From sequence record MN022785.1: 64,000 nucleotides of DNA; one strand, 5' to 3'. Shown in pieces: positions 11,985-62,750 of this stretch. A program made the position numbers and the translations under genes. Within the stretch, counting starts at the first letter, position 1, and the number at the start of each line of letters is the position of its first letter. A model generated the notes under the pieces. It ran no database searches, was not told the DNA's origin, and was given only the letters and a program-made list of their open reading frames with translations. Origin of the DNA: Escherichia phage VEc20.

Positions 11985-11993
11985 AAGTTATCC

Positions 11994-31645: not shown

Positions 31646-31894
31646 TTACTTCAGTGTTACCACAAAGTGACGAACTGCTTTTCGTGCAGCAGAAGCCAAA
31701 GGCTTAGCATATTTAAGTTCATCTTTTTCCTGAAGCTCAGCAGCTAATGCAGTTTGAGCAGGATTCAGATGTTTGAAATAACGCAGGATTTCAAGAGCTT
31801 CGGCTTCAACATCAATAGATGCGCCATAGTTTTCGTGACCATTATTCCATGCGTTTCGTTGCAGTTCAAGAGCGTGTTGTAATTGTTTAATCAT
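31646..31894 (-). CDS. rIII: probable RIII lysis-inhibition accessory protein
   Basis: 82 aa, immediately downstream of gene 31 on the same strand as in T4; length matches T4 RIII from memory. Confidence 0.55.
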   Translation of the reverse strand: MIKQLQHALELQRNAWNNGHENYGASIDVEAEALEILRYFKHLNPAQTALAAELQEKDELKYAKPLASAARKAVRHFVVTLK

Positions 31895-32041
31895 TTAAAA
31901 ATTCTCGTTAGAGATTAAAACTCGGTAGTCACGTTCTTCTGAATTTCATCTTCTTTCGACAGATCTCTCAGTTGTAGACTACCACATAGAATTGTTCGGT
32001 TAACTTATTATTCCGACACCCAATTCATATTATTATTTATA

Positions 32042-32377
32042 TCACTTATAAAGACACGGAATAGCTTTATAGTGACAGGTAACAAATTTTTGTTTAATTT
32101 CTTTTGGCTGCTTAAGACCCAGAGCTACAAAAGGATGCGGAACATTTCGAATTTGACCAACTGGGAGAGAAGTCAAATCACCAACTTCGCAGAAACCTTC
32201 AGGAACATCAGGACCGACAGAGTGAATTACACACAGTTCAGGAACTTCACCTTGAACACGTTTACCGATAATAAGTCCTGATTCTGTAACTTCTTCATCA
32301 CCGGCTTGTGAAGGTTCAGAAACTAAAATAACATATTCACCGACAGCGCGAATTGGTAGCTGTTGTACTTCAGACAT
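32042..32377 (-). CDS. 31: GroES-like co-chaperonin for capsid protein folding
   Basis: 111 aa; [22 protein letters not shown]... matches T4 gp31 from memory. Confidence 0.9.
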
Positions 32378-32433
32378 CGTTTTTCCTTTTTGTTAACAGA
32401 TGAGTTAATAATAACAAATAATTCTTAAAGCAT

Positions 32434-32742
32434 TTATTTACCAATAAATTGGAGCAAATGCTCAACTTTCATACCATTAACAGAAATCAATTTGTCAATA
32501 GAAAAACCTCGCCAAGCGCCAAGTTCAACATCAAATACTGGAATCATATCCGTAGATTCTTTCCGAGTAGATTCAGTCAATTTACCGGTTTGCATGGTTG
32601 GCATAAAGTCTGCATCACGAGTACCTTTCATAGTACGAATAGTACCATCAGACTTTTCAAAAACTACGTTTGAAACACCCATGGACAATTTAGTTTTCAA
32701 AATTTCACGAATTGCTACTTTCTGCTCAGTTGTTAGTTTCAT
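32434..32742 (-). CDS. hypothetical protein
   Basis: 102-aa ORF. Confidence 0.5.
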   Translation of the reverse strand: MKLTTEQKVAIREILKTKLSMGVSNVVFEKSDGTIRTMKGTRDADFMPTMQTGKLTESTRKESTDMIPVFDVELGAWRGFSIDKLISVNGMKVEHLLQFIGK

Positions 32743-32979
32743 TTATTTACCTATCACAGTTTTAATATGAGTTGTTCCACGTTCTTTAAGGGTGGAAAGT
32801 AATTTTTGGCATTTTTCTAAATCAGATTTCCAACTATGTGGTCTATCAATACAAACCCAGTTTGACTTATAATACTGCTTCCATTTAGAGAAAAAATACT
32901 TCTTATACTCTACAGCAAATGAAATGTTCTCGTTGGAATAAGAACTAATTGCTGTGAGCTGTACCAAACGAAATTTCAT
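32743..32979 (-). CDS. hypothetical protein
   Basis: 78-aa ORF. Confidence 0.45.
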   Translation of the reverse strand: MKFRLVQLTAISSYSNENISFAVEYKKYFFSKWKQYYKSNWVCIDRPHSWKSDLEKCQKLLSTLKERGTTHIKTVIGK

Positions 32980-33560
32980 TATTCACCACAGAATTCGTTG
33001 ATATTTTCCCAGTTTAACTTATTCAAGTTTTTCTTAGGAACATTAAACACTTCAATACCTGCATTTCGCAGAATATCATCCCAGCCAGGTTTATTTTTAT
33101 CGTATGTTTCACAATAAACCAGCTTTTTAATTCCAGATTGAGCTATCGCTTTTGCGCAATCTGGACATGGAGAAAGTGTTACATACATAGTAGCACCTTC
33201 AATAGAAGAACCATTTCGTGCAGCAAACAAAATTGCATTTAGTTCAGCATGAATTTCATTTTTAGATGACCATTCCGAGTGAGCACTACGATGTTCTTTC
33301 GCCAAGACAAAACGATCAGTTGAACCAAATGATACACATTCGGGCTTATGGCCTTGAATGATAGTGTGTTTAGGCTTATTCAACAACCAACCTTGCTCAG
33401 CAGCATAATCACAGCAATTTACTCCACCTGCGGGTGAACCATTATACCCAGTAGAAATAATACGTCCATTCTTTTCAATTACTGCTCCTACCTTCCAGGA
33501 ACAACATTTTGATTCCTGCGATACTAAATATGCAATTTGAAGTACTGTACTCGCTTTCAT
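32979..33560 (-). CDS. cd: dCMP deaminase
   Basis: 193 aa; zinc-binding motifs HAE and PCxxC (SPCPDCAKAI). Confidence 0.9.
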   Translation of the reverse strand: MKASTVLQIAYLVSQESKCCSWKVGAVIEKNGRIISTGYNGSPAGGVNCCDYAAEQGWLLNKPKHTIIQGHKPECVSFGSTDRFVLAKEHRSAHSEWSSKNEIHAELNAILFAARNGSSIEGATMYVTLSPCPDCAKAIAQSGIKKLVYCETYDKNKPGWDDILRNAGIEVFNVPKKNLNKLNWENINEFCGE

Positions 33561-33895
33561 TTCATAATCACCAGATAAGCAGATTTAGCAGTTTCAACAC
33601 GATAAATTTCGTGACGAAGTTTAGTTATACTTTTAATAACAGAACTAATTATATTCTGCCCATCTTTAAAGCGGTTTTTCTTATCAATAAAAACTGCGCC
33701 AGTCATCTTTTTGTGAAGCTCAACTGGATACTTCGTCACAATAATAGCATCATACACAGAAGGATGAATACTATTCACCAGAGTATCATTCATTAAAGTT
33801 ATTCTAATGAACTGTGCTGTTTCAGAATCAAGCGCTCTATGATCGCCAGTATCATTTTCAAGACAATTATCAATTATATCAGTTAAATTCATCAT
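33557..33895 (-). CDS. hypothetical protein
   Basis: 112-aa ORF. Confidence 0.5.
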   Translation of the reverse strand: MMNLTDIIDNCLENDTGDHRALDSETAQFIRITLMNDTLVNSIHPSVYDAIIVTKYPVELHKKMTGAVFIDKKNRFKDGQNIISSVIKSITKLRHEIYRVETAKSAYLVIMK

Positions 33896-34128
33896 AGTAC
33901 GCCATACACCCTTTGTGCTTCAACTAATCCATCAAAATCCAGTTTAAGATGCGATATTTGATCGCCATCACCTGGATTCACAATTACTAATACTGAACGA
34001 GGAGTTTCGGTAATAACACGAACCGATGTTTCAGGAAATCGTTCAGAAACCTTATTTACCAATTCCTGAGCAAATAGTTTAACTTTTTCTTGGAATTCTT
34101 TAACAGTAATTGGTTTTTCACTTAGCAT
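33892..34128 (-). CDS. hypothetical protein
   Basis: 78-aa ORF. Confidence 0.45.
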   Translation of the reverse strand: MLSEKPITVKEFQEKVKLFAQELVNKVSERFPETSVRVITETPRSVLVIVNPGDGDQISHLKLDFDGLVEAQRVYGVL

Positions 34129-34649
34129 GTTGATCCCAGCTCCTTACTTTCAACGTTTTTAACTAATTTGACAGAAACTAATTCAGCATCTTGAGTAATC
34201 ATTACCGGGCCTTCTTCATACTCTTCAAGATATTCTAGAGCTTTCTTTTTAGCTTCTTCCTTCGTATCAGTTTGAGCATAGATATAAAACATACAACCAG
34301 TAATACCTACTACTTTCCACTTAATTTCTTTATCAGTTTTAATTTCAAATTTACTGACAGAATCATCTTTTTGAACTTCTTCGAAAAAAGAATATTCTAA
34401 CATATAAGCAATTGAAAATAACGGGCTAACTTTATAAGATTCGCCCATTACATCAACAGCTTTATACCAACAATCATCAATTTCGCGTTTAATGCTAATA
34501 ACATTTTTCGCAGGATCTATTTTTACTTTAAATGAATTTTCCCCAATAAACTGGGCAATTCGTTTATTAGCCCCGCAAGTTTCATTAAAAATATCTTTAT
34601 ATCCAGCTTTAAAGCGATAAACCTTATCTTCTTCAAACCATTCGCTCAT
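34122..34649 (-). CDS. hypothetical protein
   Basis: 175-aa ORF. Confidence 0.5.
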   Translation of the reverse strand: MSEWFEEDKVYRFKAGYKDIFNETCGANKRIAQFIGENSFKVKIDPAKNVISIKREIDDCWYKAVDVMGESYKVSPLFSIAYMLEYSFFEEVQKDDSVSKFEIKTDKEIKWKVVGITGCMFYIYAQTDTKEEAKKKALEYLEEYEEGPVMITQDAELVSVKLVKNVESKELGSTC

Positions 34650-34711
34650 TTCAATTTCCTCATTTGTTTTGGTAGAGCTATAATATCACAACTCTACCGT
34701 AAAGTAAACTA

Positions 34712-35017
34712 TTAAATTGCTTTGAATTCTGATGTCTGTGATTCAAAGCGAATATCGCCTTTGATGACTAGCTCAGCATCAAGACCGAATACAACAATGA
34801 TATGCGCTGAACCTGGATACAACGTGATGGCAACAGAATCCACCTGGTCTGGAAGCAAAGTATTCAATACATGAGTCACTTGAGCGTGGATTCGAAGTTC
34901 AGCTGCATTATCAAGCTTTTCAAACATGTTATTAGCGATAATTTGGCTAAACACTACTTCTACGATTTTAGAGTAAGTCGGAAACATATTTACCTCACAT
35001 AATTTTCTTCGAGCCAA
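34712..35017 (-). CDS. hypothetical protein
   Basis: 101-aa ORF. Confidence 0.45.
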   Translation of the reverse strand: MARRKLCEVNMFPTYSKIVEVVFSQIIANNMFEKLDNAAELRIHAQVTHVLNTLLPDQVDSVAITLYPGSAHIIVVFGLDAELVIKGDIRFESQTSEFKAI

Positions 35018-35190
35018 TCAATAACATCCAAAGCGTTATCAAAAGTTGAACCATCTACTTTGTCTTCTGTTTCATAATCAAGAACATCTAGGCCTACTCT
35101 TCCGTCAACAATAGGCCATAAACAAAATAGATATTTCTTTTCTTTTTCAATTTTATCACAAAGACGATAAATCTTTTCTATATTATTCAT
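34990..35190 (-). CDS. hypothetical protein
   Basis: 66-aa ORF. Confidence 0.4.
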   Translation of the reverse strand: MNNIEKIYRLCDKIEKEKKYLFCLWPIVDGRVGLDVLDYETEDKVDGSTFDNALDVIDWLEENYVR

Positions 35191-35379
35191 AAGTTTTCCA
35201 TGGTAAAGGCAGTTTAGTTTTCTTTACTGTTAGTTCAATATCAGGATTCTTTTCTCTTAATTTAAGGCATTCCTCCCAAGCTCTGATTTCACTAGTGAAT
35301 ACACAAAATTGCCCATTACTAGTACCAACTAAACCACTATTTACAATAACAATAGACCAAGTTTCATGATGCCACGCCA

Positions 35380-35380
<1 letters not shown>
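35183..35380 (-). CDS. hypothetical protein
   Basis: 65-aa ORF. Confidence 0.4.
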
Positions 35381-36605
<1,225 letters not shown>

Positions 36606-36608
36606 TTA

Positions 36609-36839
36609 TTATTTCTCAACCAATGATTGAATATAATCATGCAGGTCTTTAGATGCTTTACCCCACTTATTTTGGTATTCATTTTTAAGATTAGCCCGAG
36701 ATTGAGCTAATAAAACATCATTAGTTGGAGGTAAAGATTCTAACCGTTGAATCTGGCGTCCATAAATCATTGCAGCCATCTCGGATTCATAAATCAATCC
36801 TTTGAGATGTTCAAATTGATGCCATGAAATCATTTGCAT
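36609..36839 (-). CDS. hypothetical protein
   Basis: 76-aa ORF. Confidence 0.45.
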   Translation of the reverse strand: MQMISWHQFEHLKGLIYESEMAAMIYGRQIQRLESLPPTNDVLLAQSRANLKNEYQNKWGKASKDLHDYIQSLVEK

Positions 36840-37129
36840 TTATCCTCTTTTAGCTCTTGACGATAATAACATATCATAGTTTTTTGGTCATGTACATATC
36901 GTTTTACATCATTAAGCCAAATACGAAATTCCTGGGAATCTTCAAATGGCATACCGACCCAAGCTTTACCATCAATAACTTTAACTTGCCAAGATAGTTT
37001 AGCTTCATCATATGACTTTATTTGTACAGGCCAATTAGGATGAACTGTTTCTTTCTTTACTTCTAGAGGCTTTGTCGAACAACCAACTAGAAGACCAATA
37101 GATAATATTACTGCTGATAGTTTAATCAT
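36830..37129 (-). CDS. predicted lipoprotein
   Basis: N-terminus MIKLSAVILSIGLLVGC: hydrophobic core followed by lipobox L-V-G-C; Ser at +2. Confidence 0.55.
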   Translation of the reverse strand: MIKLSAVILSIGLLVGCSTKPLEVKKETVHPNWPVQIKSYDEAKLSWQVKVIDGKAWVGMPFEDSQEFRIWLNDVKRYVHDQKTMICYYRQELKEDKCK

Positions 37130-37479
37130 TTAGAAAGGTCCTGGATGTCTTCTGCGAACTTGTTGAAGGAGTTGTTGATTTGTTTTTCAACCAATCCTGG
37201 CTTATGAGCCACCACATCCGCCTTCTTTGCGTCTTTGCGCAGTTTTTCATTTTCACGCTCAATAGCAGCAATTGCCTCACGATTTTTATTATTCATCGCA
37301 TCAATATAATTATACTGAATTCGCAAATTGTTTAATGCTAAAGCGTTTTCATTGGCCGTTTTTGTAATTTCTACAACAGACGTTTCTAATCTTTCAATTT
37401 TATTTTTTAAAATTAAAGAAGTTCCGCCCAATGCAATTACAATTAATAGCAAACCTGTTGTCGTATTACTTAATTGCAT
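37126..37479 (-). CDS. predicted membrane-anchored coiled-coil protein
   Basis: single N-terminal hydrophobic helix GLLLIVIALGGTSLIL, then charged helical region. Confidence 0.5.
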   Translation of the reverse strand: MQLSNTTTGLLLIVIALGGTSLILKNKIERLETSVVEITKTANENALALNNLRIQYNYIDAMNNKNREAIAAIERENEKLRKDAKKADVVAHKPGLVEKQINNSFNKFAEDIQDLSK

Positions 37480-37976
37480 AAAGTTTTAATAACCTCTATA
37501 ATATCGTCTTGAGAAAGACCGTTAATTAAAATATGATGTTCCGCCGGAGATTTAGAAATTTTAAAGCATGCCGCAACATCTTCTGCCATATCTGATGCAC
37601 TACGATTTGGATTACTAATCCCAAGGCGGTGTTTTCCCGTTAAAGGATTAACGATGATATAGCATTTACAGTTGTTAATATGAACATTAGGTTGAGTCTG
37701 ATTAATGAACACATCACAATCATATTTCGCAAGCTGATTTTCTAAAAAGACTTTCATCTCCTCAACCGCATCAGGAAGCATATCACGGGCTTGCTCAAGA
37801 CGACGATTTCGATATTCTTTAATGGTCGTTTTCCGCTTGACTTGCTTAGCTAAATCTTTCTTAAGATCGGTGATATATCCAACTCGACGATTTCCTTTGA
37901 ATACAGAAATCCCATCTGTAGTATCACCGTATGCTTCAACGACCATTTCAGTAGTAATAAGTTGTAAATCCATCAT
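37470..37976 (-). CDS. alc: probable Alc (inhibitor of host transcription elongation)
   Basis: about 167 aa, immediately downstream of rnlA as in T4. Confidence 0.65.
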   Translation of the reverse strand: MMDLQLITTEMVVEAYGDTTDGISVFKGNRRVGYITDLKKDLAKQVKRKTTIKEYRNRRLEQARDMLPDAVEEMKVFLENQLAKYDCDVFINQTQPNVHINNCKCYIIVNPLTGKHRLGISNPNRSASDMAEDVAACFKISKSPAEHHILINGLSQDDIIEVIKTLCN

Positions 37977-37980
37977 AAAG

Positions 37981-38034
37981 TCCTCATGTTATGTCAGTAA
38001 GACTACTATAACACAACACGAGGGACTTGTAAAC
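37981..38034 (-). repeat. copy B of the perfect 54-bp promoter/leader repeat
   Basis: identical to 23705-23758; GAGGA 4 nt upstream of alc ATG. Confidence 0.8.
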
Positions 38035-38037
38035 AGC

Positions 38038-39625
<1,588 letters not shown>

Positions 39626-39633
39626 AATAAAAT

Positions 39634-39647
39634 GGGCCTTGCGGCCC
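39634..39647 (-). terminator. GC hairpin GGGCC-TTGC-GGCCC
   Basis: seen in sequence. Confidence 0.35.
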
Positions 39648-39652
39648 ACTCC

Positions 39653-40822
39653 TTAAAAATATTTTTTAAAACTCATCATAACTTTATCATCAACATCATT
39701 ATCAATCTGTGCTACAAGGTAAGATGACAGTTCTACTTCTTGCGGCGCGGATTGAACATTATCAGAATTAAGGTATTCACGAATCCAAGGATATGGATGT
39801 TTAACCGGAGCATCGGTAATTGGGCATGGAAGACCGCACTGTTTCATACGAGATACAGTTAAGTAATCAATAAAGCTCCACATGCTATTTGTATTTAATC
39901 CAGGAACATCACCATCTTTAAATAAATGAACTGCCCAATCTTTTTCTTGGCGGTTAACTTCCATGAAAATATCAACTGCTTCTTGTTCACACTCTTGAGC
40001 AATTTTAACCCATTCATCGCCATCAGTGCCAAGTTGAAGTTGACGAATAATATATTGAGTGCCTTTAAGGTGAAGCTGCTCATCACGTGCAATGAACTTC
40101 ATAATCTTGGCATTACCTTCCATGATTTCCATATTCTTGTGGAAGTTAAAGGTACATGCGAAAGATACATAAAAACGAATAGCTTCTAAGGCATTAATAA
40201 CGTGCAAACAGAGGTAAAGAGATTTCATTAGCTCTCGTTTGGCGTATTCAACGACTTTACCAAGTTCATCTTTGCGCCAACCTTCAGACAAAATTCCTTC
40301 GTATTCTTCTTTAGCGTTTTCCCAATAACGAGTTTTAATCAGAACATCATCATAATAACGTCCAATGGATTCAGCACGTTTCATAATAGCTTCATCTAGT
40401 ACAATCTCATCAAATACCTTTGACGGATCAGTATAAAGATTTCGCATGATATGTGTATATGAACGGCTGTGAATAGTTTCACTAAAAGTCCATGTAGCAA
40501 CCCATGTATCAAGGCTTGGGTCTGAAATTAATGACATAAGTACAGCAGACGGTGCACGACCCTGAATGCTATCCAAAAGTGATTGATACTTCAGGTTATT
40601 AGTAAAAATATTTTGCTGATACTGAGGAAGCTTATTAAACTGTGCAGCATCCATCATTAAGTTTACTTCTTCAGGACGCCAGAAAAATGATAAAGATTTC
40701 TCAATAAGTTCTTCAAATACTCTATGCCGTTGAATATCATATCGAGCTAAACCCAATCCAGAACCAAAAAACATCGGCTCAGTCAAAATATTAACAGGGG
40801 ATGTATTAAAAACTGTACTCAT
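39653..40822 (-). CDS. nrdB: ribonucleotide reductase small subunit, uninterrupted (no intron)
   Basis: continuous 389-codon ORF; resembles T4 NrdB. Confidence 0.9.
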   Translation of the reverse strand: MSTVFNTSPVNILTEPMFFGSGLGLARYDIQRHRVFEELIEKSLSFFWRPEEVNLMMDAAQFNKLPQYQQNIFTNNLKYQSLLDSIQGRAPSAVLMSLISDPSLDTWVATWTFSETIHSRSYTHIMRNLYTDPSKVFDEIVLDEAIMKRAESIGRYYDDVLIKTRYWENAKEEYEGILSEGWRKDELGKVVEYAKRELMKSLYLCLHVINALEAIRFYVSFACTFNFHKNMEIMEGNAKIMKFIARDEQLHLKGTQYIIRQLQLGTDGDEWVKIAQECEQEAVDIFMEVNRQEKDWAVHLFKDGDVPGLNTNSMWSFIDYLTVSRMKQCGLPCPITDAPVKHPYPWIREYLNSDNVQSAPQEVELSSYLVAQIDNDVDDKVMMSFKKYF

Positions 40823-41460
40823 TTAGAATCCTTAAATTTACATTTATCATAATGCCATCTTAGAGCATTGCCTTTATTAACTTTCTTGCCACAATGCGGA
40901 CAAGGCGGATACTCTATACTTTGCTTAGTTCTCAAAGAAATCAAATCGCGAGTTTCTTTAGTATGAGGAACATCTCTTGTCGGAGAGATTGTACCATACA
41001 TCGGATTAAGCACGCCGACTTTAGCAGCAGCTATATTCTTTTTAGCTTCTTCGGTTTTAGGTTTTCTCATGCGAGCTAAATGCTCTTTGGTAAATTTCCT
41101 TCCTTTAAGAGCTCTACTTATCTTTTCCCTGGTTTCTATAGAAACTTCACGTCCTATAGCAGCTTCAGATAAACGTCGTCTACCTAATTCGTATAGTTGA
41201 GAAGAAATTTTATATGAGCGATTTTTACCAGTCAAGCACATTAAACCAAAAGCTTTCTTTAATCCTGGGGTGTCATATATTTTGCATAAAAGCCAATGAG
41301 CTATAAAATGCTCTCTACCTGTTAATTCAACTAAATTTTCTTTATCATCAGAACCTCCCATGCATCTAGGGATTATATGATGAGTCTCTTTATATCCTAA
41401 TAAAGGTTCCCGAGCCTGAGCTCGGGAAATTAGGTCATTATAGATTTTTTGATAATTCAT
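40819..41460 (-). CDS. mobE: free-standing HNH homing endonuclease between nrdA and nrdB
   Basis: HNH motif HHIIPRCMGGSDDKENLVELTGREHFIAHW; repeated ETREKIS-like NUMOD-type motifs; position as T4 mobE. Confidence 0.7.
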   Translation of the reverse strand: MNYQKIYNDLISRAQAREPLLGYKETHHIIPRCMGGSDDKENLVELTGREHFIAHWLLCKIYDTPGLKKAFGLMCLTGKNRSYKISSQLYELGRRRLSEAAIGREVSIETREKISRALKGRKFTKEHLARMRKPKTEEAKKNIAAAKVGVLNPMYGTISPTRDVPHTKETRDLISLRTKQSIEYPPCPHCGKKVNKGNALRWHYDKCKFKDSK

Positions 41461-43724
41461 TACAATTTACACGCTGCACAATCTTCAGCTTTTGGAGTTT
41501 CTATTTCATAATCATCAGTACCAGAACCATCGCGGGTATTATGATAATAGAAATTTTTTCCGCCAAAATACCAAAAATACAAAAGGTCATCAATCATTAT
41601 TGACATTGGAACCTTGCCTTTAGGGAAGATTTGGGGGTCATAGTATGTATTCGCCGAAGCTGATTGACAAACCCATTTCAGCATAATAGCTACCTGCGTA
41701 AGATAAGGTTTATTACCTTTCTTAGCTAATTTCCATGTATAGTCGTAAAGGTCTATGTTATGCTCAATATTGGGCACGACCTGATTAAAGGAGCCCTCTT
41801 TTGATTCTTTAACAGAGACTGGTCCACGTGGAGGCTCGATACCGTTTGTACTGTTAGAAACTTGGGAAGATGACTCACATGGCATAAGTGCTGATAATGT
41901 GCTATTACGGATGCCAAAGAGCTTAAGGTCTTCCCGCAGCGACGACCAGTCACAAACGTATTTTGGAGCTGCGATTTGGTCAATCTTTTTATTGTACCAG
42001 TCGATAGGTAATTCGCCTCGAGACCAACGAGTGTCTGAATAATATTCGCAAGGTCCTTTTTCTTTGGCGAGCTTAATGGATGCTTTAATGAGTCCATACT
42101 GTAATCTCTCAAATAGTTCATGTGTTAAATCGTTAGCATCTTCATAAGAAGCAAAGTTACTTGCCAGCCAAGCTGCATAGTTAGTAACACCTACACCGAG
42201 GTTACGACGCTTTTTAGCTTTTTCTGCTTCAGGAACTGGATATCCTTGGTAATCCAAAAGATTATCAAGAGCACGAACTTGGACTTCTGCCAATTCATTA
42301 ATTTTATCTTGGTCTTGCCAATCAAAATTATCCAGTACGAATGCAGAAAGAGTACACAATCCAATTTCAGCATCAGGACTATTCACATCATTTGTTGGAA
42401 TAGCAATTTCACAGCACAAGTTACTCTGACGAATAGGTGCCTTTTCACGAATAAACGGAGTATAGTTATTCGTATTATCAATGAACTGCACATAAATCCT
42501 TGCTGTTCCTGAACGTTCAGTCATGAGCAATTCAAATAGTTCACGGGCTTTAATACGCTTTTTACGAATATTAGGGTCTTTTTCTGCGGCTTCGTATAAT
42601 TCACGGAAACGGTCTTGGTCTTTAAAATAAGAATAATAAAGCTCGCCACCCATTTCATGCGGACTGAACAAAGTAATGTAATCGTTCTTTCCGAATCGTT
42701 CCATCATCAAATCATTCAGCTGAACACCATAATCCATATGACGAATGCGGTTTTCTTCTACGCCTTTGTTATTTTTCAAAACGAGAAGATTTTCAACTTC
42801 CAAATGCCAAATAGGATAATAAGCAGTAGCAGCGCCGCCACGAATTCCACCCTGTGAACATGATTTAACTGCAGTCTGAAAATGTTTCCAAAAAGGAATA
42901 ACACCAGTATGACGTACTTCACCCATGTCAATCTTAGAACCTTCAGCACGAATCATACCAACGTTAATACCAATTCCAGCGCGTTTAGAGATATATTCAA
43001 CAATTGAAGCAGAAGCTTTATTAATTGACTTCAATGAATCACCAGCTTCAATAACAACACATGAACTAAACTGTCGAGTCGGAGTACGGCAACCAGCCAT
43101 AATAGGAGTTGGCAATGAAATCTGTCGAGTAGATACCGCTTCATAAAAACGAATAACATGTTTTAATCTATCAACAGGTTCATCTTGATGCAATGCCATT
43201 CCAATAGTCATAAATGCAAACTGTGGAGTTTCATAAATTTGACCAGTGGTTTTATCTTTAACTAGATATTTTTCTTTTAATTGCATCGCCCCGGAATAAG
43301 TAAATTCCATATCCCGCTCGTGCTTAATTTTTGATTCTAAAAATGTAATTTCTTCTGCTGAATATTTTGACAATAATTCAGGGTCGTATTTACCTTCATT
43401 TACACAGTAAGAAATATGGTCAATAAATGAACGTGGTTCATACTGCCCATAAACATGCTTACGAAGAGCAAACATTAAACAGCGTGCAGCTACATATTGA
43501 TAATCAGGCTCTTCAACCGAAATAGAATTCGCAGCGGCCTTAATGACAATAGTCTGAATATCATCAGTTGTCATTCCATCACGGAGATAAGATTTAATAT
43601 TTTCATATAATTCATAAGGATCTACTGATGTTCCCTCAGCTGCCCAAGATAAAACTTTAATAATTTTTTGCGGGTCAAAGCTCTGAGAAACACCACTACT
43701 TTTGATAACATTAATTAATTGCAT
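41460..43724 (-). CDS. nrdA: ribonucleotide reductase large subunit
   Basis: 754 aa; synteny and resemblance to T4 NrdA. Confidence 0.9.
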   Translation of the reverse strand: MQLINVIKSSGVSQSFDPQKIIKVLSWAAEGTSVDPYELYENIKSYLRDGMTTDDIQTIVIKAAANSISVEEPDYQYVAARCLMFALRKHVYGQYEPRSFIDHISYCVNEGKYDPELLSKYSAEEITFLESKIKHERDMEFTYSGAMQLKEKYLVKDKTTGQIYETPQFAFMTIGMALHQDEPVDRLKHVIRFYEAVSTRQISLPTPIMAGCRTPTRQFSSCVVIEAGDSLKSINKASASIVEYISKRAGIGINVGMIRAEGSKIDMGEVRHTGVIPFWKHFQTAVKSCSQGGIRGGAATAYYPIWHLEVENLLVLKNNKGVEENRIRHMDYGVQLNDLMMERFGKNDYITLFSPHEMGGELYYSYFKDQDRFRELYEAAEKDPNIRKKRIKARELFELLMTERSGTARIYVQFIDNTNNYTPFIREKAPIRQSNLCCEIAIPTNDVNSPDAEIGLCTLSAFVLDNFDWQDQDKINELAEVQVRALDNLLDYQGYPVPEAEKAKKRRNLGVGVTNYAAWLASNFASYEDANDLTHELFERLQYGLIKASIKLAKEKGPCEYYSDTRWSRGELPIDWYNKKIDQIAAPKYVCDWSSLREDLKLFGIRNSTLSALMPCESSSQVSNSTNGIEPPRGPVSVKESKEGSFNQVVPNIEHNIDLYDYTWKLAKKGNKPYLTQVAIMLKWVCQSASANTYYDPQIFPKGKVPMSIMIDDLLYFWYFGGKNFYYHNTRDGSGTDDYEIETPKAEDCAACKL

Positions 43725-44041
43725 AAGTCCTCAACTTGAAAATCGTCTTTAAACAATCGGTTAACTATATGAGCTATTATATCACCATGACACGGCTTTG
43801 GTTTACATGTGCATCCTAGCCTCATTCCGCGTAAAGGCTCTAAATGTGCTTTAGTTATTTCTCCGGATTTAATTCGACGTATAAAATCTTTTTTGAATAA
43901 TTCAATGGCAGCCTCCCGGCTGCCAGCATCTTTACCGACGTAATTTCCCCAAAATGTACCGCGGTGAATATTAATATCAAAGTCGGATTTATATTTATTC
44001 ACTACCTGGCATAGACGGCCCGCGCGACGATAATTCGTCAT
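43715..44041 (-). CDS. hypothetical protein with Cys/His motif
   Basis: 108 aa; [13 protein letters not shown] motif. Confidence 0.5.
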
Positions 44042-44270
44042 ATTGTTTTTCCGTTAAAACAGTAATATCATAGTAACAATCAGAAGAAGTTTTAACTGTA
44101 GAAATTTTATTATCAAAATACTCACGAGTCATTTTATGAGTATAATATTTTTTACCATAAATGATAATAGGCTGATTTGGTCCTGGAACTTCTAACTCGC
44201 TTGGGTTAGGAAGTGTAAAAAGAATGGCACCAGAAGTATCTTTAAATCGTAAAATCATATATCCTCTCAA
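43995..44270 (-). CDS. hypothetical protein
   Basis: 91-aa ORF. Confidence 0.45.
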
Positions 44271-44281
44271 TTAAATTAAAA

Positions 44282-44593
44282 TTATACCGCCATTTTTCCT
44301 TTCAAGACACCGTGGGATTGATAATCTTTGAGAACGAAATCTTTAGGCCTAAGTTTAAGAACATATTTTAATTGTTCTTTAGTAGAAAGATATCGGAATT
44401 TATAAGGTAGACCACTTATTACCAGCTCACAAAGCTCTTTAGGTTCACGCCTCAAAATTTCTTTACATTGTTCTACGTGATTCATATAGATATGAGTATT
44501 ACCACCAGAAAATATCAAATCTCCTGGAATAAGATTACACATCTTAGCTACAATATGCGTCAAGGCAGCGTACGAGGCAATGTTGAACGGTAG
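44282..44593 (-). CDS. td: thymidylate synthase, exon 2
   Basis: in-frame continuation LPFNIASYA... after intron; exon1+exon2 = 286 codons. Confidence 0.9.
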   Translation of the reverse strand, partial: LPFNIASYAALTHIVAKMCNLIPGDLIFSGGNTHIYMNHVEQCKEILRREPKELCELVISGLPYKFRYLSTKEQLKYVLKLRPKDFVLKDYQSHGVLKGKMAV

Positions 44594-45609
44594 CATTATG
44601 TTCAGATAAGGTCGTTAATCTTATCCCGGAATTATATCCAGCTGCATGTCACCATGCAGAGCAGACTATATCTCCAACTTGTTAAAGCAAGTTGTCTATC
44701 GTTTCGAGTCACTTGACCCTACTCCCTAAAGGGATAGTCGTTAGGCATTTATGTAGAACCAATTCCACTTATCAGATTTTACACGGTAAGTAACTAATCC
44801 TGATGAAATTTCAAAATGTCTAGCCGCATCGGCTGCACATTCAAAAATAATCCCATCGCATGAAATCTTTTTGATGTTAGCTGGCTTTTTGCCTTTCATC
44901 TTTTCAGATAGTTTAGTTTTAGTTTTTTCTGAATGTTTGTGATTAAAGAACGGGTTATTTTCACCTGAACGTTTTCGGCACTTTCCACAAGTATCGGCCG
45001 AAGATGGTATGCGAACACCGCATTTACAAAACTTGTGGTTTTCTGGATTCCATCGGCCATTTTTACTTCCGTGTTTACCATAAAGAGCTTTCCGACCATC
45101 AGGACCAAGCTTAAGCATCTTAGCTTTAACAGTTTCAGCTCGTTTCTTAGCAATTTCTTCTTTTAATGGATGATTTGAAAGCACATCGCCAAAAGACGCA
45201 TCAGCAATATTATATCCATTAATTTTAGAATTTAGCTCTTTAATCCAAAAATTTTCTCGTTCAATAATCAAATCTTTCTCATATGGAATTTCTTCCAGTA
45301 CAGAGCATTCAAAAACATTACCATGTTTATTAAAAGACCTTTGAAATTTTATAGAAGAGTGAACACCGTTTTCAAGGTCTTTAAAATGTCTCTTCCATCT
45401 TTTCTCAAAATCTTTAGCACTTCCAACATACACTTTACCGTTTAAAGTGTTTTTAATCTGATAAATTCCGCTTTTCATAAACACCTCTTTTTATATAGAA
45501 GTATTTATTAAAGGGTAGTCCTACAATTTAGCACGGGATTGTCTACTAGAGAGGTCCCCCGTTTAGATAGATTACAAGTATAAGTCACCTTATACCTAGG
45601 CCTAAATTA
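44594..45609 (-). mobile_element. td group I self-splicing intron (1016 nt) carrying I-TevI
   Basis: 5' intron sequence TAATTTAGGCCTAGGTATAAGGTGACTTATACTTGTAATCTATCTAAACGGGG... matches T4 td intron from memory; ends in G before exon 2; length 1016 as in T4. Confidence 0.9.
44741..45478 (-). CDS. I-TevI: intron-encoded GIY-YIG homing endonuclease
   Basis: MKSGIYQIKNTLNGKVYVGSAKDFEKRWKRHF... matches I-TevI from memory; 245 aa. Confidence 0.9.
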   Translation of the reverse strand: MKSGIYQIKNTLNGKVYVGSAKDFEKRWKRHFKDLENGVHSSIKFQRSFNKHGNVFECSVLEEIPYEKDLIIERENFWIKELNSKINGYNIADASFGDVLSNHPLKEEIAKKRAETVKAKMLKLGPDGRKALYGKHGSKNGRWNPENHKFCKCGVRIPSSADTCGKCRKRSGENNPFFNHKHSEKTKTKLSEKMKGKKPANIKKISCDGIIFECAADAARHFEISSGLVTYRVKSDKWNWFYINA

Positions 45610-46158
45610 ACCCAAGAAAACATCTACACTGCGTTGATACCACTGCAAATCCAAATAGCCATTACGCACATTAAACTGATAGAACATATGACAAGGCGGT
45701 AATGCCATATATTTAAGTTCAGCTGGATTCCACGCAGAAACAATTTGTCGCCTATCATTCGGCAGTTTTTTAATACGATCAATAACTTCTACAATTTGGT
45801 CTACACCGCCAAAATCACGCCACTGTTTTCCATAAATTGGACCAAGTTCACCGCTATGGTATCCTAAATCTTTTGCTTGATTTTCGTAATTTTCATCCCA
45901 GACTGTTTTGCCTTGAATTAATGAATCATGCTGAATTAATCGTAAATCATTGACATTTGTGCTTCCTGATAAAAACCAAAGTAGCTCAGCAATGCATGCA
46001 TTCCAGGCGAGCTTTTTAGTTGTTACTGCAGGAAAACCTTTACTTAAATCCCAGCGTAATTTAGTACCGAACAAAGCAATTGTTCCTGTGCCTGTTCGAT
46101 CATCGGTTTCATAGCCATTTTCAAAAATGTCTTTAATTAAATCTTGGTATTGTTTCAT
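45610..46158 (-). CDS. td: thymidylate synthase, exon 1
   Basis: 183 codons ending ...VDVFLG at the 5' splice site. Confidence 0.9.
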
Positions 46159-46203
46159 TTAGTACCTTATATAAATTATAATACATTTTATGAAGCTAAA
46201 TAA

Positions 46204-46563
46204 TCAATACGGTTTAGCATCAAATTTTCTTTCGATTTCAGGAGTGAAATATAATTCTTTACCGCGTTTAGAAAAGCGACCAATAATATGATAATTATTC
46301 TCATCAAACGTGATATTACCAATATCCATAGCTTTCAACCAAATATCGATATTTCTATCCAGCTTTATGTCAAAATTCCAATACGGAGAACTATTACCGA
46401 AAATACTGCAAGCGGATTCAGTGAAACAACTGCTATAAATCTTGTCTTTAGGAACTACTAATTGATAGACACCTTTAATAAACTGAGGACCTTGCCATTT
46501 TGGCTGTTTTGCGTCTTTTTCTAATAGAATAGGATAATAATTAAAGTTCATATTTTCCGCCAC
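46204..46563 (-). CDS. hypothetical protein inserted between frd and td
   Basis: 119-aa ORF occupying a junction that I recall as a direct frd/td overlap in T4. Confidence 0.5.
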   Translation of the reverse strand: MAENMNFNYYPILLEKDAKQPKWQGPQFIKGVYQLVVPKDKIYSSCFTESACSIFGNSSPYWNFDIKLDRNIDIWLKAMDIGNITFDENNYHIIGRFSKRGKELYFTPEIERKFDAKPY

Positions 46564-46571
46564 GCGTTATT

Positions 46572-47398
<827 letters not shown>

Positions 47399-47408
47399 AT
47401 TATTTTCC

Positions 47409-47651
47409 TTAAATAGACTTTTTCACAATTTTCCAATCAGCTTTAAACTGCTCGACGTCAGAATGGTAAATCCAGAATCCTGCGCTTTCTCCGTCTTCAT
47501 AAAGAGGACATCCATCACATTCATCTTCCCATCCCATGCCACGTAAAAGGTGTTCAGCTTTTTCAACAAGTTCAGAATCTTTACCGATGATATTAAAATA
47601 CCATTTACCTCTAACTTCTGAATCTTTGATGCTCTGGCGTTGTAATCTCAT
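47409..47651 (-). CDS. hypothetical protein
   Basis: 80-aa ORF. Confidence 0.45.
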   Translation of the reverse strand: MRLQRQSIKDSEVRGKWYFNIIGKDSELVEKAEHLLRGMGWEDECDGCPLYEDGESAGFWIYHSDVEQFKADWKIVKKSI

Positions 47652-47807
47652 TTTATTCTCCTTAGCAAGCTTTAATCAAAAGATATAAACAGACCAACAT
47701 AACTGCTGCCATAATATAAGGTGCGAACATTTTCTTTTCTCCATTAGTTTTGATAGGGTAATAGTATCACACTACTACCCTTCTGTAAACTACTTTTTGA
47801 AAGTTTT

Positions 47808-48155
47808 TCACAAAAGTTCAATGATTTCATCTACATTGTTTTCGTCAACAATGCAGTGAATTTTTGTTACGCCAGAAACTTTGTCTTTGACTTCATCTTC
47901 TTCAGAAGTCGGTTCTTTATACTCACGAAAACAATGAAATTCGTCTTCACAAACGTTAAAGTAAAAATGCTTTCCATTTGCGCATTCAATGTGTTTTATT
48001 ACTCTAAATCCATCAACAAAGAAAGCTTCTTTAACTTCAAACCATCCGCCATTTTCTTGAATAATTTTAACTATTGCTGAATTAGAACGTGGGCGATAAT
48101 TAATAAATGTATCAATAAGTCTTGGAACAAGTTCATACTTTTTACCGATATACAT
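47808..48155 (-). CDS. hypothetical protein
   Basis: 115-aa ORF. Confidence 0.5.
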   Translation of the reverse strand: MYIGKKYELVPRLIDTFINYRPRSNSAIVKIIQENGGWFEVKEAFFVDGFRVIKHIECANGKHFYFNVCEDEFHCFREYKEPTSEEDEVKDKVSGVTKIHCIVDENNVDEIIELL

Positions 48156-48199
48156 TATGTTTTCCTCATTTTAACGGGGCTGTAATAGCCCCTTGATAA

Positions 48200-48490
48200 T
48201 TATTGTTCAATCAATCCCATGTAAAATTCTGCGTCTTCAGAATCCATACCATCACAATATTCATTAGCCATAAAGCGGGTGAGGTCTTCAAGAGGACCTT
48301 CAATAACGATTTGAATACTCCAAAACTTAGAATCTTGCACGCTTGTGATACTAAGTTCAGGATAACGATTACGAATAATTTCTTCGATATATTCAAAATC
48401 AACGATGTCAATATCAACTTTAGCCATATTATTTTCCTCTTTAATCATCAGCAGTATTGCCGATAGTTGTATAGTACCATGGAAGGACAA
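48200..48490 (-). CDS. hypothetical acidic protein
   Basis: 96-aa ORF. Confidence 0.45.
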
Positions 48491-48530
48491 GGATGTAAAC
48501 CGTTTTGTGAAAAAATTTTTGAAATAAAAA

Positions 48531-48549
48531 GGGGACCTCTAGGGTCCCC
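48531..48549 (-). terminator. hairpin GGGGACC-TCTAG-GGTCCCC downstream of gene 32
   Basis: perfect 7-bp stem. Confidence 0.45.
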
Positions 48550-48571
48550 AATTAATTAGTAATATAATCTA

Positions 48572-49477
48572 TTAAAGGTCATTCAAAAGGTCATCTAGGT
48601 CCGTGTCATCAGCACTAGATGAACTGCCAGAGCTTGAGCTCATAAAATCATCTTCAGTTTTTGTATTGAAGTCATCAACATTGAATGCATCCAAATCATC
48701 AGCAACTTTATCAGCTTTCTTAGCAGCAGTTGCAGCAGCACCGCCCATCACAGCAGTTCCCATAACTTGACCGAATTTAGTATTCAGTTCTTCAAATGAT
48801 TTGAATTTATCTTTAGAAGTCATTTCAGAAAGGTCAACCATTTGTTCGAACAGTTCTTTCTGGAAAGATTCATCATCAATGTTTGGAATCGCAGATTGAT
48901 TCAGGAATTTAGATTCATCGTAGTTACTAAATCCGGAAACTTGTTTAACTTTCAGTACAAAGTTAGCACCTTCCCACGGACAAGTTACATCAACCGGAGT
49001 TTCACCCATTTCAACATCAACCGCAATCATTGCATTGATTTTATCCCAGATTTTCTTACCGAAACGATATTTAAATACTTTACCTTCATTTTCTGGAGCA
49101 GCTGGGTCTTTTACAACAAGAATATTAGCCCAGTAAGAAGTTTTACGTTTAACAAGACTGTACTCTTTATTGTCAGTGTTGTACAGATCATTTTTACTGA
49201 TGTACTGACATACTGGGCAAGAATCGTAATCACCATGGGTAGATGAACATGTTTCAATATACCATTTACCATTTTTCTTGAAACCGTGATTTACAAGAAT
49301 TGCGAATGGTGCTTGTTCATCATTTTTAGACGGAAGAAAACGAATTACTGCTTGACCGTTACCCGCATTATCGAGTTTCAGTTTCCACTCGCCTTTATCT
49401 TCAGAAGAAAAACCTTTATTGCCATTCAGTTTAGCCATTTGTGCAGCAAGTTCAGCAGTAGATTTACGTTTAAACAT
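48572..49477 (-). CDS. 32: single-stranded DNA-binding protein
   Basis: 301 aa; [23 protein letters not shown]... matches T4 gp32 from memory; acidic C-terminus. Confidence 0.95.
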
Positions 49478-49560
49478 TTTATTTCCTTTTTAATTTAATT
49501 TAATTAACAGTTGGTGCTATGACACTTTACCTCATAGCTGGCATAATTCGCAATACTCTG
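49478..49560 (-). promoter_or_regulatory. gene 32 mRNA leader / translational autoregulatory operator
   Basis: minus strand reads ...AATTAAATTAAATTAAAAAGGAAATAAAATG, the A/U-rich UUAAA-repeat leader known for T4 gene 32. Confidence 0.55.
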
Positions 49561-50164
49561 GGTCTTCGAGAGGTATCCAACCTAAGTTGAAATACTTTAC
49601 CATCGATTTAGCAGTTGTATCAGTTATATTTATATTACCTTTAACTCTTCGCCATCCAGGAGTTTTACCGTACAGATTAGAGGATAATAATAACACATAA
49701 TTCTCGTAAGCAATATGAGATAATTTCCAAGACTCTATATTAGCTCGTGATGTTTTCCAAGGTCTAAAATCGTCACGGTTCATATAATTAGCCAATCTCA
49801 TATGCTCTCTAACTTCCGGGTCTTTGGCTGGATGAGTTTCACCACTCACACCAAATCCACCACCAGCATATACCAGATTAAAATAGTCTGGATTATCTCT
49901 TGCATTTACTTCAAGTTGGTATTTTCGTTCTGCTTCAATAACATCCAAGTCATCATCAATTTGAATTATTTTAACGCTCGGTTTTTGAAGCATTAGCGCA
50001 TTCAAAAATCTTTTTTGTTTACATGAGCTCCAGTATTCCTTTCCGGAAGAGTCATATATTATTCCGTTCTCAAATGAGCAATTTAATTTACTACCGATAT
50101 AATAGTATGGCGGAGTCTTATTTTTGACACGGTCTTCAAATGTAAACCAATATACTATATTCAT
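49532..50164 (-). CDS. segG: GIY-YIG homing endonuclease-like protein between 32 and 59
   Basis: N-terminal NIVYWFTF...YYYIGSK GIY-YIG motif; position as T4 segG. Confidence 0.6.
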   Translation of the reverse strand: MNIVYWFTFEDRVKNKTPPYYYIGSKLNCSFENGIIYDSSGKEYWSSCKQKRFLNALMLQKPSVKIIQIDDDLDVIEAERKYQLEVNARDNPDYFNLVYAGGGFGVSGETHPAKDPEVREHMRLANYMNRDDFRPWKTSRANIESWKLSHIAYENYVLLLSSNLYGKTPGWRRVKGNINITDTTAKSMVKYFNLGWIPLEDPEYCELCQL

Positions 50165-61100: not shown

Positions 61101-61230
61101 AATTTCTAACTCTGCTGTGAACGCGCTTTTAATTAAGGCTATCCAAGAAATGAGCGAAGAAATTAAAGAATTAAAAACGCCTTTCTTCACTAAAATTGCT
61201 CGCAAAATTAGTAATTATTTTAAATTCTAA
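58147..61230 (+). CDS. 37: long tail fibre distal subunit with C-terminal intramolecular chaperone domain
   Basis: 1027 aa; last 117 aa carry S-D-R-R-L-K...[15 protein letters not shown]...LLIKAIQEM signature. Confidence 0.9.
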
Positions 61231-61236
61231 CAACAA

Positions 61237-61249
61237 GGGGCTTTGCCCC
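61237..61249 (+). terminator. GC hairpin GGGGC-TTTG-CCCC between genes 37 and 38
   Basis: seen in sequence. Confidence 0.4.
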
Positions 61250-61262
61250 TTTGGAGAAAATT

Positions 61263-62063
61263 ATGGCAGTAGTTGGAGTTCCTGGCTGGATTGGAAGTTC
61301 AGCCGTAAATGAAACGGGTCAGCGCTGGATGAGTCAAGCAGCTGGTCAATTAAGATTGGGTGTTCCTTGCTGGATGAGTCAATTTGCAGGTCGCTCAAGA
61401 GAAATTATTCATACACTTGGAGCAGACCATAACTTCAATGGTCAATGGTTCCGAGATAGATGTTTTGAGGCCGGTAGTGCACCTATAGTGTTTAATATTA
61501 CAGGTGATTTAGTATCATATTCTAAAGATGTTCCTTTATTCTTCATGTACGGGGATACGCCTAATGAATATGTTGTTCTTAATATTCATGGTGGTGTTCA
61601 TATGTGGGGTCGTGGTGGTAATGGTGGATACACTCACTCGGGAGGCGACGGTAACGGTACACAAGGTGGTCATGTTATTCAAAATGATATCGGTGGACGG
61701 CTTCGTATTTGGAACTACGGTGTTATAGCTGCTGGCGGTGGCGGCGGTGGTGGTATTGCATATCGTCCACACTCAGGGGCAAACTGGCAAGATATCGGTG
61801 GCGGTGGTGGTCGACCTTTCGGTGGCGCTGGCGGTGGCGGTTATTCCGGTGGTGCTGCTTCGTATGAAGGTCCGGGTGGTGGTTATGACTATGGTAACGC
61901 ACACTCCGGCGCTGGTGGTAATGCTGGTGCTGCTGGTCAGAATGCATGGTCTGACGGCGGTAAAGTTCTTAAAGTTGGTGTTGGTGGTGCGTCTGGTCAT
62001 GCAGTGTTTGGATCTTCTCCAACTTGGGGTGTTGTTGGAACAATTTACGGACCAAGAGTATAA
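61263..62063 (+). CDS. 38: gp38 tail-fibre adhesin with glycine-rich motifs (T2/T6 type)
   Basis: [30 protein letters not shown]-terminus; central poly-Gly islands separated by short variable segments; GGAG before ATG. Confidence 0.8.
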
Positions 62064-62093: not shown

Positions 62094-62750
62094 ATGGCAG
62101 CACCTAGAATATCATTTTCGCCCTCTGATATTCTGTTGGGTGTTCTAGATCGCTTGTTCAAAGATAACGCTACCGGGAAGGTTCTTGCTTCCCGGGTAGC
62201 TGTCGTAATTCTTTTGTTTATAATGGCGATTGTTTGGTATAGGGGAGATAGTTTCTTTGAGTACTATAAGCAATCAAAGTATGAAACATACCGTGAAATT
62301 ATTGAAAAGGAAAGAAATGCACGCTTTGAATCTGTCGCCCTGGAACAACTCCAGATAGTTCATATATCATCTGAGGCAGACTTTAGTGCGGTGTATTCTT
62401 TCCGCCCTAAAAACTTAAACTATTTTGTTGATATTATAGCATATGAAGGAAGATTACCTTCAACAATAACTGAAAAATCACTTGGAGGATATCCTGTTGA
62501 TAAAACTATGGATGAATATACAGTTCATTTAAATGGACGTCATTATTATTCCAACTCAAAATTTGCTTTTTTACCAACTAAAAAGCCTACTCCCGAAATA
62601 AACTACATGTACAGTTGTCCATATTTTAATTTGGATAATATCTATGCTGGAACGATAACCATGTACTGGTATAGAAATGATCATATAAGTAATGACCGCC
62701 TTGAATCAATATGTGCTCAGGCGGCCAGAATATTAGGAAGGGCTAAATAA
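62094..62750 (+). CDS. t: holin
   Basis: 218 aa; N-terminal TM segment VAVVILLFIMAIVWY; matches T4 holin T from memory. Confidence 0.9.
   Translation: MAAPRISFSPSDILLGVLDRLFKDNATGKVLASRVAVVILLFIMAIVWYRGDSFFEYYKQSKYETYREIIEKERNARFESVALEQLQIVHISSEADFSAVYSFRPKNLNYFVDIIAYEGRLPSTITEKSLGGYPVDKTMDEYTVHLNGRHYYSNSKFAFLPTKKPTPEINYMYSCPYFNLDNIYAGTITMYWYRNDHISNDRLESICAQAARILGRAK

Follow-up and report, generated by a model that had tools for sequence, protein, structure and literature searches.

The lipoprotein and membrane protein genes between alc and pseT of Escherichia phage VEc20 in all probability encode the two-component spanin of T4-like phages

Two overlapping open reading frames on the minus strand of Escherichia phage VEc20 almost certainly specify the two components of a T4-like phage's spanin, with the pseT.3 orthologue encoding the i-spanin and the pseT.2 orthologue encoding the o-spanin. 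They are located in a stretch of 64,000 nucleotides of the sequence record MN022785.1, referred to below as the window, in which an earlier note had interpreted them as an envelope-targeted module for superinfection exclusion or receptor masking. As a lysis device the pair is already known; it does not constitute a new module for superinfection exclusion. T4 PseT.3/PseT.2 was reportedly described by Summer et al. in 2007 as a two-component spanin of 'separated' architecture. The T4 proteins are regarded as the paradigm of this architecture (Kongari et al. 2018, PMC6139136), and the bioinformatics identification of the T4 pair is confirmed by complementation and cysteine mutagenesis (PMC6139136). 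The main value of the present analysis is accordingly a correct annotation, as the recognition of the pair avoids its mis-filing as an exclusion system.

Direct reading of the sequence placed both open reading frames on the minus strand where the earlier note had drawn them, arranged head to tail as orthologues of pseT.3 and pseT.2. The features of the pair and of its genetic context are given below with the coordinates of the window.

36830..37129, minus strand: o-spanin gene, pseT.2 orthologue (open reading frame, T4 identity, phrog_812)
37079..37129, minus strand: lipoprotein signal peptide, residues 1-16, and codon of the lipobox Cys17 (37079-37081), by direct sequence reading
37079-37090, minus strand: lipobox L-V-G-C, residues 14-17 (match of the lipobox regular expression at residue 14)
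36836..36871, minus strand: C-terminal segment of the o-spanin with Cys87 (36869-36871) and Cys98 (36836-36838), the disulfide-forming residues according to T4 PseT.2
37126..37479, minus strand: i-spanin gene, pseT.3 orthologue, 117 amino acids (open reading frame, T4 identity, phrog_739, AF2)
37408..37458, minus strand: codons of the i-spanin transmembrane helix, residues ~8-24, TGLLLIVIALGGTSLIL (Kyte-Doolittle, window of 17)
37126..37129, minus strand: 4-nt overlap ATGA between the i-spanin gene and the o-spanin gene, junction sequence TCTAAATGATT, read directly
38005..38033, minus strand: putative early sigma-70 promoter with extended -10 region in the rnlA-alc gap (TTTACA-17-TATAGT with TG)
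36285-36605: open reading frame of 106 amino acids between pseT.1 and pseT, phrog_2364 (function unknown)
62094..62750, plus strand: holin gene t, a partner in the lysis pathway ~25 kb from the pair, context (phrog_860, E 6.5e-107)
31646..31894, minus strand: rIII, an accessory gene of lysis inhibition, context (phrog_1457, E 4.7e-44)
58147-62063: fibre genes gp37/gp38, with gp38 at 61251-62063

Upstream of the pair are the genes for Alc (PF17527, E 2.7e-90) and then RNA ligase A; downstream are pseT.1, the extra open reading frame of 106 amino acids and then the gene for the polynucleotide kinase PseT. The proposed location between alc and pseT was thus confirmed, with pseT.1 and the 106-residue reading frame, which was found in 462 phage records, separating the pair from pseT itself. 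The window belongs to a Tequatrovirus: over bases 36200-38100 it has 100% identity with Escherichia phages vB_EcoM-CHD94UKE2, G3F7 and G3F10 and 99.9% with slur03/slur14. The 1:1 colinearity of the window with phage slur14 breaks beyond ~40.8 kb. In a scan of the whole window against Rfam, the gathering score was reached by no family, the split td gene included. The earlier note had also remarked that an envelope-targeted pair stands out among genes of nucleotide metabolism, an impression that hardly holds, as scattered lysis genes are known in T4 and as holin gene t and rIII likewise occupy separate positions in the window.

The identity of the pair was deduced from comparisons with T4 (record HM137666) and with the PHROG families. 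The lipoprotein and T4 PseT.2 agree in all 99 residues (100% identity), and the partner of the lipoprotein shares 91.5% identity with T4 PseT.3, the 10 differences being confined to residues 2-36 and the remainder being identical from residue 37 onwards. The lipoprotein matched the 'Rz-like spanin' family phrog_812 over residues 1-99 (E 3.5e-43), and its PHROG matches comprise this one spanin family, one further family whose function is unknown, and nothing else. The partner matched phrog_739, also termed 'Rz-like spanin', over residues 1-117 (E 3.2e-37), with a weak match to a second spanin family, phrog_214 (E 7.8e-6). In near-identical genomes the two genes are labelled 'outer membrane lipoprotein Rz1' and 'spanin Rz', the latter for instance in Kha5h, or 'o-spanin' and 'i-spanin'; in many near-identical GenBank records one or both genes are designated 'hypothetical protein' or 'putative membrane protein'. 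Scans of Pfam, NCBIfam and PADLOC yielded no family that reached its threshold for either protein, the lipoprotein giving zero matches to Pfam and the i-spanin coiled-coil matches that were all below threshold. A sequence search of the PDB returned nothing meaningful for both proteins (best E 0.22 and 0.47), and neither a curated Pfam or NCBIfam model nor a solved structure was found for the fold of the pair.

The functional evidence comes from experiments with the T4 proteins (PMC6139136). A plasmid carrying pseT.3 and pseT.2 (ppseT.3pseT.2) restored lysis in a lambda RzamRz1am lysogen, and the PseT.2 variants C87S and C98S as well as the double mutant were all lysis-defective, which makes both cysteines essential. 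Both T4 proteins were detected with antibodies; PseT.3 formed no SDS-stable dimer, as expected for a protein without cysteines, and ~30% of PseT.2 was present as a dimer that is sensitive to reducing agent, solely when PseT.3 was present (PMC6139136). This dependence of the disulfide-linked dimer on PseT.3 provides indirect evidence for a complex of i-spanin and o-spanin in T4. On the basis of these T4 data, the identical o-spanin and the 91.5% identical i-spanin of VEc20 are predicted to act in lysis as well.

The o-spanin precursor consists of 99 amino acids, and the mature form is predicted to be an outer-membrane lipoprotein of 83 amino acids. The N-terminus reads MIKLSAVILSIGLLVGC followed by STK, with Lys3 in the n-region and an unbroken hydrophobic core thereafter; on inspection by eye, it presumably fits the PROSITE PS51257-type lipoprotein rule. 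The signal peptide and sorting calls are rule-based; they reproduced the previously described lipoprotein signal with the lipobox LVGC and Ser18 at the +2 position, with no Asp as a 'Lol-avoidance' signal. The Kyte-Doolittle profile (window of 17) has an N-terminal peak of 2.18 and values of at most 0.28 elsewhere. When the lipobox filter was applied to the 563 ATG-started candidate reading frames of at least 40 amino acids in the window, a single one passed, namely that of the lipoprotein. Cysteine residues are present at positions 17, 87 and 98, and cleavage before Cys17 agrees with the published size of 83 amino acids for the mature T4 o-spanin, the T4 i-spanin being of 117 amino acids (PMC6139136). 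For the o-spanin, AF2 run on the single sequence gave an unusable model (pLDDT 44), whose weak beta/alpha pattern is a hint at most.

The overlapping upstream gene encodes a protein with zero cysteines and a single hydrophobic segment, with a maximum of 2.29 at residue 8 of the Kyte-Doolittle profile (window of 17) and values of at most 0.30 elsewhere. Accordingly, the one N-terminal transmembrane helix noticed before was found again, and the i-spanin is predicted to be a type II inner-membrane protein, the bulk of which is periplasmic. The helical nature of the remaining domain was likewise supported by a single-sequence AF2 model (pLDDT 88.7), which contains a helix from residue 5 to 91, a break at 92-93 within Lys-Pro-Gly and a second helix from 94 to 116. 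The hydrophobic residues keep one heptad register over residues 26-117, the observed value being equalled in none of 5000 shuffles; this whole-domain single-register test was significant, whereas the windowed heptad score (28 residues) was not (216 of 2000 shuffles). The proposal of an envelope-targeted two-gene module thus stood in its structural part, as a lipoprotein together with a transmembrane partner that carries a coiled-coil-like periplasmic domain.

The conservation of these features was examined in 15 IMG/VR loci and six divergent annotated phages, namely Aeromonas Aeh1, Pectobacterium My1 (Demerecviridae), RB16, Serratia LC53, Salmonella STML-198 and Klebsiella Mineola, which resulted in alignments of 17 distinct o-spanins and 19 distinct partners. 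None of the 17 o-spanins departs from Cys in the lipobox or from Gly at -1, and all of them have Ser or Ala and never Asp at the +2 position. Two C-terminal cysteines are kept in every full-length o-spanin with a spacing of 11 residues, or 8 in RB16. An IMG/VR contig encodes a shortened o-spanin of 63 amino acids without both C-terminal cysteines, which is explained by a pseudogene or else by faulty assembly of the contig. Each of the 19 partners contains an N-terminal hydrophobic segment of very variable sequence, and towards the C-terminus the i-spanins share the motif VVAxKPxLVEKQINxSF, which is strongly conserved. In every related locus that was examined, the two genes lie side by side, mostly with an overlap of 4 nt; the overlap is 10 nt long in Aeh1 and 34 nt long in My1. 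The key residues are kept at 30-70% identity between family members, and the spanin features extend over Tequatrovirus, Mosigvirus-like phages, Jiaodavirus, Gelderlandvirus, Winklervirus, Pseudotevenvirus, Aeromonas Cinqassovirus and one phage of the Demerecviridae. In many genera the pair resides within the alc-pseT early cluster, but Aeh1 and My1 carry it in a different neighbourhood, which indicates that the linkage to alc is not universal.

A comparison with the T4 DNA revealed ~1-2% mismatches across the region, but 24 mismatches in the 150 nt at 37350-37499. This divergent patch spans the 5' end of the i-spanin gene, which specifies the cytoplasmic tip, the transmembrane domain and the juxtamembrane turns, as well as the 3' end of alc. 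Since it coincides with the segment that is hypervariable in the whole family, the simplest explanation is a mosaic patch within a region that tolerates change.

With respect to the timing of expression, the spanins of lambda are late genes, served by the late promoter pR' along with the rest of the lysis genes. The putative sigma-70 promoter in the rnlA-alc gap has 10 of 12 matches and reads GTTTACA...TGTTATAGT. The genes alc, pseT.3, pseT.2, pseT.1, the 106-residue reading frame and pseT overlap or abut consecutively, and no terminator-like site was detected on the minus strand from 38000 to 35000; this promoter would thus be expected to drive alc through pseT as one string. From 32041 to 49627 the minus strand contains no exact T4 late promoter TATAAATA, none with one mismatch is suitably placed before the pair, and a search for a MotA-box middle promoter before the pair gave no match. 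In time-resolved RNA-seq and proteomics of T4, pseT.2 was classified as 'early-RNA_early-Protein' and pseT.3 as 'early-RNA_middle-Protein', and alc and pseT.1 were also assigned to early RNA (PMC9697503 supplements). The designation of both genes as early was therefore borne out at the level of T4 RNA. Early synthesis is atypical for a lysis gene, yet compatible with the spanin model, in which it would do no harm, since the complex stays inert as long as the wall is intact.

Three other explanations of the gene pair were weighed against the spanin assignment. The small size of the reading frames, and nothing more, would speak for chance open reading frames or a mis-annotation of non-coding sequence; protein-level matches of the o-spanin in 1241 phage records (tblastn), the key residues conserved at 30-70% identity and the detection of both T4 proteins by proteomics (PMC9697503 supplements) and with antibodies (PMC6139136) are opposed to this view, which is refuted by the conservation together with the proteomic detection. 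The function suggested in the earlier note, according to which the early lipoprotein of the outer membrane, alone or together with its partner, obstructs the receptor or the DNA entry of later phages as T5 Llp does with FhuA, would be consistent with a genuine lipoprotein that is made early in T4 and with the position of the pair among early genes behind a sigma-70-like promoter. Moreover, the literature searched contains no exclusion experiment on pseT.2/pseT.3, and no report of an exclusion or receptor-inactivating activity of pseT.2 was found in it. Against this function, BLASTP produced no local alignment of the lipoprotein with T5 Llp even at E <= 100, PADLOC gave no match, and gp38, the nearest of the fibre genes checked, lies ~24 kb from the pair, whereas T5 llp adjoins oad. 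The obligate partner with a transmembrane domain and the two conserved cysteines are spanin traits that are dispensable for Llp, and the known exclusion functions of T4 are Imm and Sp. Furthermore, the identical protein has been demonstrated experimentally to be a functional o-spanin, and the pair, as the T4 spanin, replaces lambda Rz/Rz1 in lysis (PMC6139136). Exclusion as the function of the pair is therefore extremely improbable, and an additional exclusion activity alongside the spanin role has a very small probability.

The early expression also bears on the view that the pair is a true spanin whose early assembly gives the infected envelope a second, pre-lysis property, which might be a tethering or stiffening of the outer membrane, a resistance to lysis from without or to secondary adsorption, or stability during lysis inhibition. 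This would partly rescue the intuition of the earlier note, and it is favoured by early RNA and early or middle protein in T4 (PMC9697503 supplements), unlike the late lambda spanins, by the missing late promoter before the pair in VEc20 and by the retention of the genes in the alc-pseT early cluster across many genera. However, genome position and harmlessness until wall degradation explain the early synthesis more simply, and Aeh1 and My1 carry the pair in a different neighbourhood, so that such a dual use appears very unlikely, if somewhat less so than exclusion as the main function.

The components of the spanin model are provided by the gene anatomy, the sorting signals, the helices and heptads, the identity with T4 and the conservation of the key residues. 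In the proposed mechanism, the i-spanin would be anchored in the inner membrane via its N-terminal helix with an N-in/C-out orientation, and its helical, heptad-patterned domain of ~90 residues would reach into the periplasm, with the lipidated o-spanin sitting in the inner leaflet of the outer membrane. The periplasmic domains of both proteins would then bind to each other, and the resulting complexes would pass through the peptidoglycan mesh and link both membranes. The lysis function, the cysteine requirement and the partner-dependent isomerisation of disulfides are adopted from the T4 literature (PMC6139136), and Cys87 and Cys98 of the VEc20 o-spanin may likewise be engaged in an intramolecular disulfide first and in two intermolecular disulfides in the complex. 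The spanin complexes would be made from early infection on and kept inactive by intact peptidoglycan. Once holin T triggers and endolysin E removes the wall, they would diffuse and collapse, fusing the inner membrane with the outer one, and the last barrier to the release of progeny would thereby be removed. The peptidoglycan restraint and the terminal membrane fusion are proposed by analogy with lambda Rz/Rz1, membrane fusion having been demonstrated for the lambda spanins only.

A comparison with known systems shows the closest agreement with T4 PseT.3/PseT.2. The o-spanin is the same residue for residue, and the i-spanin is of the same length and identical from residue 37; the 4-nt overlap, the position between alc and pseT.1, and the presence of Cys87 and Cys98 in the o-spanin and of no cysteine in the i-spanin are also shared. 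The two helices with a break that were described for T4 PseT.3 (PMC6139136) correspond to the KPG break in the AF2 model of the VEc20 protein. The differences consist of ten i-spanin substitutions in residues 2-36, affecting the cytoplasmic tip, the transmembrane domain and the first juxtamembrane turns, and of the 106-residue reading frame between pseT.1 and pseT, which is absent from T4.

Lambda Rz/Rz1 likewise combines a type II inner-membrane protein that has a helical coiled-coil periplasmic domain with an outer-membrane lipoprotein and requires homotypic disulfides, and the T4 pair substitutes for it in lambda lysis (PMC6139136). In lambda, however, Rz1 is embedded within Rz in another frame, whereas the genes are consecutive in VEc20, and the short Rz1 is rich in proline and unstructured, compared with 83 amino acids and predicted beta and alpha elements in PseT.2. 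The cysteines are located in Rz of lambda but in the o-spanin only in VEc20, both of them being essential in T4 (PMC6139136). The T4 pair is early (PMC9697503 supplements), in contrast to the late spanins of lambda.

T5 Llp resembles the VEc20 o-spanin as a small phage lipoprotein with a classical lipobox that is made early. It differs from the o-spanin in cysteine pattern and function and shows no detectable sequence similarity to it; moreover, llp (NC_005859.1) is a solo gene of 77 amino acids that is oriented divergently beside the receptor-binding gene oad, with no transmembrane partner. The FhuA-blocking T5 Llp is labelled 'Cor superinfection exclusion protein' in NC_005859.1. Finally, the unimolecular spanin gp11 of T1 shares the final step of lysis and the outer-membrane lipoprotein anchor with the pair, but it unites a lipid anchor at one end, a C-terminal transmembrane domain at the other and a beta-rich periplasmic domain in one polypeptide, whereas VEc20 has two distinct proteins.

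The i-spanin, the PseT.3 orthologue of VEc20, departs from that of T4 within a single short segment, and its relatives include two loci at which the o-spanin deserves separate description. The features concerned are as follows.

37350-37499: patch diverging from T4, covering the N-terminus and transmembrane domain of the i-spanin and the 3' end of alc
L017 (IMGVR_UViG_2974741249_000001), 1998-2189: truncated o-spanin homologue, 63 aa
L019 (Pectobacterium phage My1, Demerecviridae), 845-1536: spanin locus

The patch contains 24 mismatches to T4 in 150 nt, compared with about 1-2% in its flanks, and all 10 amino-acid differences between the i-spanin and its T4 counterpart fall inside it. It looks like a recombination mosaic within the hypervariable transmembrane segment of the family. 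Among the relatives, L017 encodes an intact i-spanin, but its o-spanin is missing the two C-terminal cysteines that are essential; the truncation reflects either gene decay to a pseudogene or an error, in assembly or by frameshift. The o-spanin of the T5-like phage My1 is about 30% identical to T4 PseT.2, retains the C-terminal cysteine pair of that protein and overlaps its i-spanin gene by 34 nt. Since a PseT.2 relative is thus encoded by a member of the Demerecviridae, the PseT.2 family spans more than one phage family.

Additional features of the window concern the genes around the spanin pair and those encoding virion components.

36285-36605, minus strand: extra 106-aa ORF between pseT.1 and pseT (phrog_2364, unknown function)
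40819-41460, minus strand: HNH-type homing endonuclease ORF, 213 aa (phrog_655, E 1.7e-66)
44282-46158, minus strand: split thymidylate synthase gene
45607-46158 and 44282-44596, minus strand: exon-like ORFs of thymidylate synthase
44741-45484, minus strand: GIY-YIG homing endonuclease ORF, 247 aa, flanked by both exon-like ORFs
61251-62063, plus strand: adhesin-type gp38, 270 aa (phrog_2056 'tail fiber protein; host specificity', E 5.3e-110)
10606-12600, minus strand: predicted Hoc-like head decoration gene (coordinates from the slur14 annotation)

The 106-aa ORF, which is missing from the T4 record HM137666, overlaps its 3' neighbour pseT by 4 nt. It was found in 462 phage records, one of which labels it DUF6388, and yielded no match in Pfam or PADLOC. 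The HNH ORF is inserted between nrdB and nrdA, a placement that resembles that of T4 mobE; the Tequatrovirus phage slur14, although 99.9% identical otherwise, does not carry it. The nrdB gene itself is a single 389-aa ORF (39653-40822) and therefore lacks an intron. The layout of the split thymidylate synthase gene resembles that of T4 td, with its I-TevI-bearing group I intron; a search of Rfam at the gathering threshold detected no group I intron.

The gp38 ORF directly follows gp37, with its start listed as TTG, whereas slur14 carries at the equivalent position a shorter gene annotated as 'tail fiber assembly'. Accordingly, the fibre regions of the two phages differ despite their 99.9% identical spanin regions. 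The Hoc-like gene is annotated in slur14 with 1995 bp (664 aa), and this annotated length suggests extra Ig-like repeats, the product being much longer than T4 Hoc, which comprises 376 aa.
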